Virus record (IMG/VR): IMGVR_UViG_3300038425_000083
Location: 1-64,000 of that record
Reading direction: 5' to 3' (one strand)
DNA: 64,000 nt
Origin: a virus
Within the stretch, counting starts at the first letter, position 1; every line of letters starts with the position of its first letter. The position numbers were made by a program, and so were the translations under genes. This document shows positions 54,745 to 61,775 of this stretch, piece after piece. Below the pieces are notes generated by a model, which did no database searches, was not told the DNA's origin, and worked only from the letters and a program-made list of their open reading frames with translations.

Positions 54745-55083
54745 ATGAAAAAGAAACCAAAAAGTTTTTTAACCTTTGAAAGTTTTAGGGATAAGATAAC
54801 TGTTATTTCAAGCATCTTGCTTATATTTGGTATGCTATTTGCAGCATGGATGTTTCTCGATAATAGATATGCCCAAAAGAAAGTTGAACAGAAACTGGAT
54901 TATGTAAAATATAGCCTGCAGTTTCAAATGAACAACGATAAGATTTCGACATTGATGTCTTTGTACCCAAAAATAGAAACTGCTGATCCAGTCGTAAAGC
55001 AGCAACTTCAAACTTATATGGATACAAAGTTAGAACTCGTCCGTAAGATGGAAGTTTTAGAAAAGTTGGGGATAGGTCTATAA
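54745..55083 (+). CDS. single-TM membrane protein
   Basis: TM helix followed by FLDNRYA; coupled to MuF (TAATG). Confidence 0.55.
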   Translation: MKKKPKSFLTFESFRDKITVISSILLIFGMLFAAWMFLDNRYAQKKVEQKLDYVKYSLQFQMNNDKISTLMSLYPKIETADPVVKQQLQTYMDTKLELVRKMEVLEKLGIGL

Positions 55084-61000: not shown

Positions 61001-61775
61001 TGAAGGAACAAGTTCTATTCACATATACCGTGGGGTTCAACTTCATGAGTATGGAACCAGTTTTGAAGAACAGTTTGCCCACGAAGTGGGACATTTGGTA
61101 GCACGAAAAGTGTTTGGAAGCATAGAAGCTGAGAAGTGGGGCGATGTTATTAAAGGAGAGAATCCTGTTTCTCATAGAGGTAGAGAAAATGCTGCAGAAG
61201 ATTTTGCAGAAACTTATTCTCTTTATCTTAATGATGAATTAAATAAGGATGATTATCCACAGAGATATAAAGCAATAAAGAATATAGTAGATAGGGCAAG
61301 GAAGCCCAGAAAAGTTTCAAAATTAAAATGGGAAGTCAAAGATTTGAAAGATGAGTTTGAAGAGAAGACTCCTTTGCTTCATACTACTTATGACAGATTA
61401 GCTGCAGGTGGGAAAGCTAAATATACTTCGAAGCCAAGTCCTGAAGCTGAAGCCGCTTTGAAAAAATTATTTGGGAAGGGTATGGTGATAGATATGGTAA
61501 AATCCAGAAAGAAGATAGTTGAAATGAAAAAATCCAGACTCGAGAATAAGTTTGTGCCTCACAAGATAGATGGAAAAGTTTCATGGGTTAAAGTTAAACA
61601 TGGAGGCATGCTTGTTAAGAGTGCTAAACTTATCCAAGTCGGACAAGAGATTTTAGCCAAGTCTGGTTTAGCTACAATAACTGCGGTCGGGAAAGATGGA
61701 GTTACGGCAAGAACATCTAAAGGAGATAAAATACTTCTCCTTATGAAAGATGTTCTACCTTATGTAAGAGGATAA
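55083..61775 (+). CDS. MuF (head morphogenesis) polyvalent protein: MuF, GHKL ATPase, HExxH, ART-like, CCA-adding/HD, ParB-like, zincin, SH3-like
   Basis: MuF: RAYLISRTE, KW...DERTC..C, PPIHPRCRC. GHKL: ECLQNSLDA, DNGIGM, GGFGIA. HEFTH. ART-like: FHGT...GVYF. CCA: GGCVRD, DIDL, RRDLTINA, EDSLRVLR, HPEGDVWEH, CHD. GRHRF. HEVGH...EDFAE. Confidence 0.9.
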   Translation: MPRVRFEPLKITTLYEEKVAQSVKDRYKSHINRESLRLVSNITDDMRDRIAGLMHEGIDEGRSVSATASTLLKTGLDKGVFRSARRRAYLISRTELHRARQQGAFDLYRANHIDLVKWIAIGDERTCDTCAPRNNHVYRLSEIEGDLPPIHPRCRCRVVPSDFQLEISVRRDRRGKIMETRISPTPQNYKYYVSLDRKPRRRVKKSLEKAVSVRAFTRYVPGRGFQRYKQFQRDVAVIDKPVPRDFSYEIANSGEDVANKIEERREGKVRATYAVNAVRAWNMEAKNKYPNTNYLGDVGVRECLQNSLDAVTESLEKGEIKRGKIEIELTPHKEKYSVKDNGIGMSDTDIRDKFLALYGTGKDIKGRFGGFGIAKAVILAPSESSHWQLKTRDNFFDDKMASANDQIKAIPKIQGTQIDVWAGEDIVSEDAKKYVETTEVPKNIGIRFKWALDDWETLKNPFLKLKSEVSHTTAKGSEITMSFFPRPPSEYRNHMILRLVDKKTGAKLTQAINPIFGDFKGALVVDIETSATPGSGGYPLTDSRMGLKWGEVQDFVNTEISQRTREKKSAERVGQQEKWLDLPEVPGWKDTLERIKTDTGYAYLKDTIDKIWQKDFVSQHLKGIVSTDIGEQPFTSLENIKILRDVGFKGSDGGTVAQAKLMLAFESLAQMYSQTLQKAGMHCPLFGFHALLSKATSTGVRLAHFSRQEHTLGLDIKSFPKSAFASPVSLALEMVNTIQHEFTHNWRREHDEGFTSQLGQIQTVTAPLFNRALEVAGALLGKDTRITIDTPQGIEKIKRSHIWTIGEKPKQPEWRAELFQLYKEIGGKSGATAVYKIAEKYNIPEKRVRMVLAGYKAAQSRKEKKDVTKSITESSVGFRGPERTSHPRFVIQLDKRLPDESRDRSQWADSRIDAEAGTGRLGLEGRSGRRGLLVIEKARSHKYLRKIPRGSGRYEYIYQRPDVGFHGTTSKFLETILKEGLRSSKDTGVALYSGESQFGPKAKRYGVYFAKTPERAFGIAEVATKKFGGKPVIFIAKVDPKKAESDEDFAVVLGDLFRDISRDKPPLLTGNEIRQRLKDYKLSYGETYYIPQDTQYRLNTLSDGKLERLYDNWRKGGSKAIDEELTSKDSWKIFGSAAFPGDKPEDIRAAIFWDWAEHKYTRIGSPFEKKLDKALRRLNLREVTKLPGAHVVENPAFIKALEEFGFFATSTGLLKSVMGEDLKKARSYVRFRHGKYEHVKGWSGKPRLFDLSSEDKIHRYLLDASSPEIEKALQVVQEIHAVGGQTLFIGGCVRDALLGKKSKDIDLEVYNVKPEEVRAILDRAGKVDQVGKSFGVFKLSFPGMEAIDVAIPRRESKTGKGHKGFMVDHDPSMTFKEAAGRRDLTINALAYNPIEDKIIDEYGGLQDIKDKILRATNPETFGEDSLRVLRVMRFAAQLEFSPDFNLAWLCRQIDLTDLPKERIFGEVAGMLLKAKRPSIGLRLIHILGINKILPELDELKGTEQDEKWHPEGDVWEHTLLAVDEAAKMKKQLANNQDRLVYMLGVLCHDMGKPETTDVNEEGRTISHGHDEMGAKVAQDFLGRLTDETDILERVEGLVRHHMRPTFFFHDKVPDSAIRRLAKKVDIPMLLMVSAADKSGRGDKDIDLSAERWMMRKFKNLKLAHPETLEPKVMGRHLIPLGIKPGPEMGRILDKIYNAQLEGKFETTDAGLEYANQQGWLKTEEDTVIKAVPVKKLITSRGKTFLHTYYENRSGLGPGFFAGAEPLVVNKMSFKQSEDQKRWGEEVVLVDVSKFDAEWSKDEGFYISSSGKNEISNRREKFQEFLKTGKPIIMPSVSVRDIGSRGLIGFTNGRHRFAVLRDMGFTEIPVSVDAKSAKMAKELFKAPSLKEKLEAQNYWWKTVAGGIESKYEGVKIVYAGKKTSEGFTHTYADEQFQDAIDMIPEEHRKLIDSVILEPGSVLGEDGKAEFGRVFEGTSSIHIYRGVQLHEYGTSFEEQFAHEVGHLVARKVFGSIEAEKWGDVIKGENPVSHRGRENAAEDFAETYSLYLNDELNKDDYPQRYKAIKNIVDRARKPRKVSKLKWEVKDLKDEFEEKTPLLHTTYDRLAAGGKAKYTSKPSPEAEAALKKLFGKGMVIDMVKSRKKIVEMKKSRLENKFVPHKIDGKVSWVKVKHGGMLVKSAKLIQVGQEILAKSGLATITAVGKDGVTARTSKGDKILLLMKDVLPYVRG
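57679..57885 (+). CDS. candidate nested out-of-frame gene inside MuF (68 aa)
   Basis: AAGGAG 7 nt upstream of the ATG; helical protein-like sequence with LQK-A and LMK-A. Confidence 0.45.
   Translation: MSLNPLQKAALDSEAPREQVIQGLLSNLINDCLMKAGIDPNGPIAGSMRKLGQDVWDLRDALEEEGYW

Follow-up and report, generated by a model that had tools for sequence, protein, structure and literature searches.

Putative Protease Sites and Basic Arms between the Modules of a MuF-Anchored Polyvalent Protein from a Phage with a SPO1-Like Capsid

Introduction

What is to be made of a phage gene that begins as if to encode a minor head protein and then runs on, stop-free, through a series of unrelated enzymatic domains until it has specified 2230 amino acids? 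The gene (55083-61775, + strand) lies in a stretch of 64,000 nucleotides, called here the window, that comprises positions 1-64,000 of the IMG/VR record IMGVR_UViG_3300038425_000083, a single contig of 76,068 bp with all of its large open reading frames (ORFs) on the + strand. Gene positions are given in window numbering, or in contig numbering where so marked. A first-pass annotation, made from the letters alone, had described the product as a MuF polyvalent protein with its domains separated by K-[A/S] junctions, and the ORF and all the landmarks that it listed are found at the positions it gave. From the distribution of an extended form of the junction motif, I lean, without great assurance, towards a particular account of the protein: that of a polyvalent polyprotein of cargo modules, anchored by its MuF domain and cut up by the prohead protease.

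Polyvalent proteins were described as a class by Iyer, Burroughs, Anand, de Souza and Aravind (2017, J Bacteriol; PMC5512222), who found in them MuF anchors, ParB-superfamily domains, zincins and ARTs, proposed that their processing is due to their own MPTase domains, and counted N4 vRNAP, ArdC and TraC1 as members that are transferred uncut. The general idea of polyvalent injected proteins is therefore established, and the present case extends it without adding a new category. The text of PMC5512222 makes no mention of a CCA-adding enzyme, a GHKL/Hsp90-like ATPase, an HD domain or KptA.

The Motif at the Module Junctions

The four junctions singled out by the first-pass annotation are indeed present: LEK↓A (residue 209), IEK↓A (937), LKK↓A (1224) and IK↓A (1729), where the arrow marks the putative cut. 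The rule drawn from them, that K-[A/S] separates the domains, is too loose as it stands, because the bare dipeptide occurs 37 times in the protein and is uninformative by itself. What survives is a longer motif, hydrophobic-x-K-[A/S]. Its enrichment emerged from a comparison made with no prior choice of motif, in which the counts of all 400 hydrophobic-x-P1-P1' pairs were set against those in shuffled sequences. In the 2230-aa protein, K-A ranks first among the 400 (12 seen versus 4.0 expected, z 4.2) and K-S fifth (9 versus 3.4).

The same pairs stand out in the scaffold and head maturation protease of this phage, considered together, where K-S ranks first (10 versus 1.6, z 6.7) and K-A sixth (7 versus 2.1). 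K-S is again first in the other proteins that bear the tag described below. In seven control proteins, the major capsid protein (MCP) and the portal among them, K-A and K-S show no enrichment.

The enrichment extends to related phages. In a relative, L002, the scaffold has 6 instances of K-A versus 0.3 expected (z 10), and the protein in which MuF is joined to a CCA-adding domain has 8 versus 2.2. In the Bacillus phage SPO1L5 (L082), the protein in the position of the scaffold (2692-3450) contains 10 instances of hydrophobic-x-K-S versus 0.7 expected (z 10.6), and the protease contains 4 versus 0.4. The SPO1L5 counts suggest that the motif is that of the protease throughout the lineage. A search of the literature found no description of such a lineage-wide protease motif in SPO1-like phages.

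The MCP has the sequence LNK↓AL at its N-terminus, in a position conserved in this phage, L002 and the SPO1-like phage. The MCP segment that comes right after LNK↓A (contig 67154-67228) closely resembles a segment in the C-terminal extension of the protease (contig 64936-65010; L-A-A-G-H-D-N-P-A-S-S-G-G-I-S-G-S-A-L-R-R-Q-S-L-D), which may mimic the N-arm of the capsid.

Within the 2230-aa protein, 10 of the 21 hydrophobic-x-K-[AS] sites fall at borders between modules, some of them absent from the first-pass annotation (1884 and 2140/2150), and the borders coincide with breakpoints of homology.

Basic Arms, Leaders and Tags

Each of the four junctions is followed by a basic arm (Table 1), and these arms recur in other proteins together with the motif. 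(Labels such as P0010 denote proteins with homology to the one considered here or to parts of it.) The V-x-V...FQR arm of junction 1 also follows K↓A in P0010, P0011 and P0014, and an arm of the same type follows the leader M-I-E-S-Y-V-I-L-K-K↓A of P0035, a standalone GHKL protein. The arm H-K-Y-[IL]-[KR]-[KR], seen at junction 2, is preceded by hydrophobic-x-K↓[AS]-x-x in all eight of its occurrences in the protein set. P0005-P0007, P0009 and P0013 conserve the arm of junction 3 ahead of their CCA domains; P0003, P0004 and P0012 have K↓A-plus-arm units of their own ahead of that domain. In P0004 the cassette is repeated three times, and P0012 begins with M-I-R-K↓A and the arm that precedes the CCA domain. 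A hidden Markov model built from the CCA-preceding arm of the relatives recognizes junction 3 (E 1e-14) and detects no other junction in the genome, so the arms are of at least three sequence types rather than one family. They are disordered in the structural model, with a predicted local distance difference test (pLDDT) score below 30 at junction 4 (residues 1729-1768).

The motif also ends the leaders of separate genes. Standalone genes of this genome begin with [YF]-V-I-[LI]-[EK]-K↓[SA], and in L002 the MuF gene is immediately preceded by three genes that begin with M-N-Y-V-I-L-E-K↓[SA] and a basic arm, one of them encoding an ART-like protein of 177 aa. A short leader is in this way common to unrelated proteins and ends in a motif enriched in scaffold and protease, the mark by which leader-tagged cargo may be recognized. 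A gene of L002 (2205-2771; 188 aa), with the leader M-N-Y-V-I-L-K-K↓S, matches Pfam DUF5661 (E 8e-12), tying that family to the putative cargo set.

The tag mentioned above, K↓[ST]-S-E-G-A-K-K-A-W-x-T-R-[RK]-x-G-G-S-H, occurs in 14 copies, all of them in frame and on the + strand. Some copies are N-terminal, others lie inside proteins of 1007 aa and 1170 aa, and the prohead protease has the tag in its C-terminal extension.

The Modules

In one ORF are found a GHKL ATPase, a WLM-like zincin, a CCA nucleotidyltransferase, an HD domain, a ParB/Srx domain and an M34-like zincin, linked to a MuF domain and to the head module of the genome. The description of the product as a polyvalent protein is therefore sound.

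Table 1. Layout of the 2230-aa protein and positions of associated genes and tags. Positions are in window numbering unless marked as contig; arrows mark putative cuts.
Feature	Residues	Position	Strand	Basis or remark
MuF / SPP1 gp7-like minor head domain, virion anchor	1-208	55083..55706	+	Pfam, NCBIfam, PHROG
Junction 1: VKK↓S and LEK↓A, then V-x-V...G...FQR basic arm	205-233	55695..55781	+	
GHKL ATPase and transducer domain, Hsp90/MORC/MutL-like	254-565	55842..56777	+	HATPase_c_3, motifs, fold
Helical region and Wss1/WLM-like minimal zincin	566-827	56778..57563	+	HEFTHx5H at residues 740-750
Short helical, possibly helix-turn-helix-like stretch (828-868) and S/R/G-rich linker (869-937)	828-937	57564..57893	+	Bounded by VTK↓S (site at 869) and VIEK↓A (937)
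Junction 2: VIEK↓A, then R-S-H-K-Y-L-R-K...G-R-Y-E-Y-I-Y arm	934-960	57882..57962	+	
Probable ART-fold domain and C-terminal extension	956-1224	57948..58754	+	FHGT, GVYFA and DED motifs; weak matches
Junction 3: DLKK↓A, then R-S-Y-V-R-F-R-H-G-K-Y-E-H-V-K-G-W arm	1221-1247	58743..58823	+	
Class II CCA-adding tRNA nucleotidyltransferase and HD phosphohydrolase domain	1248-1729	58824..60269	+	
Junction 4: TVIK↓A, then V-P-V-K-K...R-G-K-T-F-L-H-T-Y-Y arm	1726-1752	60258..60338	+	
Osa-like ParB/Srx-fold domain, GRHR motif	1766-1895	60378..60767	+	Structural alignment to Osa
M34-like gluzincin, HEVGH ... AEDFAE	1898-2076	60774..61310	+	Structural alignment to M34 fold
Helical linker (2077-2133), conserved beta-rich tail of about 95 aa (2134-2230) and stop codon	2077-2230	61311..61775	+	
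Portal gene	 	38013-39683	+	phrog_12 portal, E 2.5e-54; opens the head module containing the polyvalent gene
Head maturation protease gene (515 aa)	 	contig 64201-65748	+	PHROG "head maturation protease"
Scaffold gene	 	contig 66280-66975	+	
MCP gene	 	contig 67073-68485	+	
Tag copies	 	12580, 14225, 15455, 15866, 23318, 23762, 24695, 26339, 26961, 32941, 36970, 40599, 50007; contig 65239	+	

The N-terminal assignment is secure. Residues 50-158 match Pfam MuF (PF04233, E 4e-12) at 47.2 bits against a cut-off of 29.6, and the region scores 47.9 bits against a cut-off of 39.65 with the NCBIfam model phageSPP1_gp7 (TIGR01641). It also matches PHROG families of minor head and head morphogenesis proteins. 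It is 44-57% identical to the N-termini of P0003-P0011, and the homology to MuF relatives stops at junction 1.

The first-pass annotation had noted a GHKL ATPase and, downstream, an HEFTH motif (residue 740, nt 57300). Both are there, and an exhaustive search with residues 210-1224 makes them parts of one conserved module of about 570 aa (residues 254-827), 40-48% identical to stretches in dozens of proteins of 2000-4400 aa and in a few standalone proteins. Pfam HATPase_c_3 is matched at residues 300-378 (28-31 bits, cut-off 25), and in an alignment of 46 sequences the N, DxGxG and GGFGIAK motifs and H-E-x-x-H-x5-H are each at least 90% conserved. The module was modeled by AlphaFold (AF2) with a mean pLDDT of 88. 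Foldseek places full-length Hsp90/TRAP1 at the top (E 4e-12), and in a library of viral structures the nearest named entries are phage rIIA, phage proteins of the Hsp90 family and ATPase domains of topoisomerase II. VIA, a structure aligner independent of Foldseek and the source of all the Z values given here, aligns the ATPase and transducer with GRP94 (Z 17.2), SMCHD1 (16.1), MORC2 (15.8) and MutL (15.6). These matches, TRAP1 among them, lie at Z 15-17 over about 255 residues, and together with the Bergerat motifs and an S5-fold transducer they mark the domain as a GHKL ATPase of the Hsp90/MORC/MutL type.

The zincin part of the module aligns with Wss1 (5xbn, Z 7.7, 116 of 128 residues; 5ln5, Z 6.9), although Z values of this size can also arise from common arrangements. 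A match to Pfam WLM (E 0.0022), below the cut-off at 18.6 bits against 26, agrees with the Wss1 fold. From sequence and model, the whole module looks catalytically intact. The region that follows it (residues 828-937) yielded a single weak Pfam match, to Phage_terminase (E 0.06), and homologue searches with it found none.

The next segment had been called an ART-like domain of the HGT type beginning at 57978. Its FHGT motif (residue 965) is at that place, and the fold is backed by sub-threshold matches only: to Pfam Tpt1 (E 0.0075) and PARP (E 0.08), to four Tpt1/KptA chains that head the PDB profile matches (E 0.4-1), and, as weak leads in the Atlas, to PARP, Arr and Tox-ART-HYD1 at 0.87. One homologue, P0174, is 31% identical and conserves the FHGT, GVYFA and DED motifs. 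BLASTP connects the segment (E 4e-5) to the 177-aa standalone gene of L002, which itself matches PARP (E 0.0017). An ART fold for residues 956-1224 is probable. The family ART-PolyVal (PF18760) was tried and rejected: Pfam gives no match, and hhalign against an alignment of family members from the relatives gives a probability of 0.4%.

Nothing is ambiguous about the CCA-adding/HD module, which the first-pass annotation had identified correctly. Pfam PolyA_pol finds the head domain at residues 1288-1414 (82.5 bits) and Pfam HD follows at residues 1514-1605 (38.7 bits); the region matches phrog_2244, tRNA nucleotidyltransferase (E 2e-72), NCBIfam "multifunctional CCA addition/repair protein" (NF008137, E 1e-51) and HDIG (30.7 bits, cut-off 27.6). 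The motifs GGCVRD, DID, RRD, EDSLR and HD are all intact, and an alignment of 11 sequences shows no variation in them. The module is 48-68% identical to P0003-P0014, with homology ending at residues 1720-1753. As compared to the E. coli-type multifunctional protein, it has in common the head, neck, body and HD domain and all signature motifs, but it falls short of the equivalog level of NF008137 (176 bits against a cut-off of 451), as a divergent phage clade, and it sits in a virion-type protein between putative cut-site cassettes. A scan of viral contigs with the region as a single protein gave no match.

What might a phage head do with such an enzyme? Free-standing genes for CCA enzymes are common in phages, and their products are generally read as components of RNA repair (PMC7824862). 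The present phage has two tRNA genes, for isoleucine (2715-2789, anticodon TAT) and glutamine (3539-3615, anticodon TTG), and since both already encode the CCA end, it is unlikely that the module matures them. Repair of tRNA 3' ends at the onset of infection would be a more natural role. Enzymes that trim, extend or phosphorylate the acceptor end of tRNA are candidate host weapons; that one of these is what the module counters is speculation. The literature search found no paper that links a CCA-adding enzyme with a polyvalent or MuF protein.

The model of the C-terminal 500 residues has a mean pLDDT of 60.6, with 70-92 in the two enzymatic domains and 70-82 in the ParB-like part. The ParB-like domain that had been proposed from its GRHR motif, near nt 60640 (about residue 1853), aligns over 124 of 188 residues with Osa, the ParB/Srx protein of plasmid pSa (4ovb, Z 12.5, root-mean-square deviation 3.6), and with sulfiredoxin at Z 5.6, which places it in the ParB/Srx fold. 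Pfam PFIN is matched at sub-threshold level here and in P0023. Homologues occur in P0014, P0018, P0019 and P0023, the last a fusion of MuF with the ParB-like domain. The zincin that had been read from HEVGH/EDFAE near nt 61080 (HEVGH at about residue 2000) is closest in fold to the M34 peptidases: Z is 12.6 for the catalytic domain of anthrax lethal factor, 10.8 for PPEP-3 and 10.4 for PPEP-2, with a sub-threshold match to Pfam ATLF (E 0.0012, 19 bits against 27.4). It is 49-57% identical to P0020-P0022. P0020 has the two domains in reversed order, and P0022 is a metagenomic fusion, 553 aa in length, of MuF with the M34-like zincin. The linker in P0022 differs from the junctions described above (G-G-P-G-S-G-Y-Y-G-H-A-G-R-P-G-F-V-G-G-S), and other phage lineages may have junction cassettes of their own.

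Both C-terminal domains look catalytically intact, judged by motifs and models. The fold matches to Wss1/WLM, Osa and M34 peptidases (Z 7.7, 12.5 and 12.6) come with the right metal or active-site motifs, but the sequence similarity is under the family thresholds, and the partners (GHKL ATPase and MuF) and the phage-head setting differ. A fold in common with Wss1, Osa or M34 does not establish a common substrate. The Pfam families ddrB-ParB (DdrB-like ParB) and MPTase-PolyVal were considered for the isolated segments and gave no match, even with E values of up to 10 allowed. Searching the PDB with each of the three uncertain segments as a single sequence returned nothing useful, and scans of viral contigs with the ART-like and C-terminal segments found no match.

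The tail is kept at the extreme C-terminus of all the MuF-CCA relatives, with 32-52% identity. It is beta-rich in a low-confidence model (pLDDT about 50). The label SH3-like that it had been given is unsupported, the Atlas search having offered no named neighbor.

A Family of Shuffled Modules

The combination of domains had been judged unusual, and this is less so than it seemed. A word-index search found at least ten metagenomic relatives with N-terminal MuF, central CCA/HD (48-68% identity) and the same C-terminal tail, between which the variable modules include a 2H/Acb1-like phosphoesterase, RadC, ART-PolyVal, PBECR2 and inteins. To this skeleton the 2230-aa protein adds the GHKL-WLM module, the ParB-like domain and the M34-like zincin. 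Since the last two occur elsewhere as simple MuF fusions (P0023 and P0022), the protein is best seen as one member of a module-shuffling family.

Integrity and Setting of the Gene

A protein of this kind invites the suspicion that separate genes have been fused by an assembly chimera or a frameshift artefact, and the first-pass annotation had itself raised the danger of a chimera. The low-complexity S/R/G linker at residues 869-937 and, inside it, an alternative-frame ORF of 82 codons (57637-57885) could be taken in that sense. However, the stretch is found at ≥99% identity in at least ten metagenome runs from peat and wetland, no RNA run being listed among the runs that hold it, and in three independent runs (X6, X7 and X8) contigs span all of it at ≥99% identity, with no indels or joints, bridging each of the four named junctions. 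An identical protein is encoded on a second contig, of 78.9 kb. A chimera is therefore excluded. The relatives have the fused layout as well, and a search of the 170-protein set turned up no homologue of the alternative-frame peptide, so that a nested gene is likewise unsupported. An artefact of either kind strikes me as extremely improbable.

The gene lies inside the head module, 15 kb past the portal gene and 2.4 kb ahead of the protease gene. The MCP shares 42-46% identity with its counterparts in SPO1-like and other Herelleviridae phages. The phage is an uncultured one of peat or wetland, with a Herelleviridae-type (SPO1-like) capsid.

Does the Prohead Protease Cut the Protein?

In the account that I favor, the MuF domain, and perhaps the tail as well, would bring the chain into the prohead. 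There, wherever a hydrophobic-x-K↓[A/S] site between modules is exposed, the prohead protease would cut after the lysine, just as it presumably processes the scaffold, its own chain and the N-terminus of the MCP. Each freed module would retain at its N-terminus a basic arm some 20 aa long, which may tether it to the packaged DNA or to the inner shell. Ejected from the capsid together with the DNA, the pieces would be active ahead of all phage gene expression, the CCA/HD module repairing tRNA 3' ends damaged by host defenses, the others attacking or disarming host proteins, DNA or nucleotide signals.

Several observations weigh against this account. Of the 21 sites, roughly half are located within folded domains, for example in the conserved GGFGIAK↓A loop, where cutting is unlikely. 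Shuffled sequences lose helical periodicity, so some of the enrichment seen in helical proteins could have a structural origin, although the absence of enrichment of K-G, K-E, K-L and E-A counters a purely structural source. A weight matrix made from 13 tag-defined sites ranks the four junctions 33rd, 39th, 67th and 308th of 401, so they are not close copies of the main leader. The MuF protein contains none of the 14 K↓SSEGAKKAWxTRR tags, its junctions having three other basic arms, each after hydrophobic-x-K↓A; these junctions do belong to a wider motif system of the phage. The head protease is recognized by its PHROG family alone, searches of Pfam, NCBIfam and PDB sequences having come back empty, and the literature search found neither a cleavage specificity for a Herelleviridae head protease nor an experimentally determined cut site in SPO1- or Twort-like phages. 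Finally, the two zincins of the same chain could do the cutting instead.

That last possibility deserves consideration in its own right. Both zincins, Wss1-like and M34-like, have an intact HExxH, and autoprocessing has been proposed for the P1 DdrB type, with ParB and MPTase (PMC5512222), which the C-terminal pair of ParB-like domain and zincin resembles. Yet P0003, P0005 and P0007 lack both zincins, so far as Pfam can tell, and keep the K↓A-arm junctions, standalone genes bear the leader with no zincin at hand, and the motif is enriched in scaffold and protease, all of which makes processing by the protein's own metallopeptidases quite unlikely. Or the protein may not be cut at all. It might be packaged and injected intact, the cassettes serving as flexible linkers and as docking or DNA-binding elements, for example by adding a beta-strand onto scaffold, shell or portal. 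Disorder of the arms is seen in the models (pLDDT below 30 for residues 1729-1768), the Y-V-I-L-E-K leader and a strand-turn-strand arm could form a small sheet, and N4 vRNAP, ArdC and TraC1 provide precedents for transfer without cutting (PMC5512222). Against this, the same tetrapeptide is the most enriched motif of scaffold and protease across three phages with this type of capsid, the MCP has it at its N-terminus, at a place where the SPO1-like phage has it too, and an uncut 250-kDa protein anchored at the portal would be awkward to eject. Scaffold and protease are normally degraded by the maturation protease. I consider transfer of the intact protein rather unlikely, though it merits attention.

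It could also be that only the MuF part enters the virion and that the enzymes, fused to it incidentally, act in the producing cell, with the CCA module maturing phage tRNAs. The phage does encode two tRNAs, and free-standing CCA enzymes are common in phages (PMC7824862). But the tRNA genes supply their own CCA ends, the gene is located in the late head module, and the MuF-CCA fusion, with its common C-terminal tail, has been conserved in at least ten divergent relatives, and I judge such an intracellular role very unlikely.

Comparison with Known Systems

Cleavage by the prohead protease would have parallels. In phage T4, a capsid targeting sequence on IPI-III and Alt is reportedly removed by the gp21 prohead protease at L/I-x-E. 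The likeness lies in a short conserved leader on unrelated proteins, ending in a tripeptide frequent in the scaffold, and in T4 the cargo is ejected with the DNA. In the present phage, by contrast, P1 would be Lys rather than Glu, a polyprotein has the motif repeated between its domains, a basic arm would open the part that is retained, and the capsid lineage is SPO1-like, not T4-like. Reviews touching on the T4 system are PMC3012670 and PMC9026906. The prohead protease of the phiKZ-like phages is said to recognize S/A/G-x-E, and these phages likewise have many head-internal proteins with the protease motif, some cut at multiple places. They differ in the motif itself, in belonging to another phage group, and in cargo that does not consist of MuF-anchored multi-enzyme chains. 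For the cutting of ejection proteins at several sites in these giant phages, SPN3US gp245 being an example, see PMC10052503 and PMC7411985.

The closest comparison is with the polyvalent proteins of PMC5512222, with which the protein has in common many unrelated effectors in one chain, encoding by late or head genes, a MuF anchor, predicted injection, possible processing, a ParB-superfamily domain beside a zincin, and an ART-like domain. It is set apart by the lack of a match to Pfam ART-PolyVal, MPTase-PolyVal or ddrB-ParB, and by the proposed agent of processing: in place of an MPTase of its own, a putative prohead-protease motif common to several proteins.

Two of the modules represent types of cargo beyond those of the founding paper. 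One is the GHKL ATPase with its Wss1-like protease, a unit of about 570 aa that turns up in hundreds of giant proteins. The other is a complete CCA-adding/HD tRNA repair enzyme, which would extend phage RNA repair to the first moments of infection.

If the junction motif is indeed a prohead-protease site, then polyvalent proteins can be genuine polyproteins, processed by the maturation protease instead of their own peptidases, and looking for the leader or the K↓A-arm cassette would be a simple way to pick out, from metagenomes, the injected effectors of phages with this type of capsid. One might go further and suppose that phages with SPO1-type capsids possess a portable cassette of cut and basic arm that makes capsid cargo of any enzyme, whether as a separate gene or as a bead in a MuF-polyprotein, and that in the present case at least six free enzymes are released in the head, among them a CCA/HD repair enzyme, injected to counter host defenses that damage or block the acceptor ends of tRNAs, and an undescribed Hsp90-like ATPase with a Wss1-like protease, a unit widespread in giant polyvalent proteins. 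I offer this wider scheme as a tentative one, somewhat doubtful as a whole.

Other Leader- or Tag-Bearing Genes

Two other proteins of the window carry internal cassettes or sites of this kind. The protein of 1170 aa (23192-26704) contains four internal tag cassettes and a topoisomerase IB core of the eukaryotic type (Pfam PF01028, E 5e-21), and looks like a second polyprotein-style cargo. A leader-bearing GNAT-domain protein of 610 aa (49968-51800) has an internal Y-V-I-L-E-K↓A at residue 352, the top-scoring site of the weight matrix among those not used to train it. Just upstream of the MuF gene (52792-53655) lies a gene for a C1 peptidase of the papain family.

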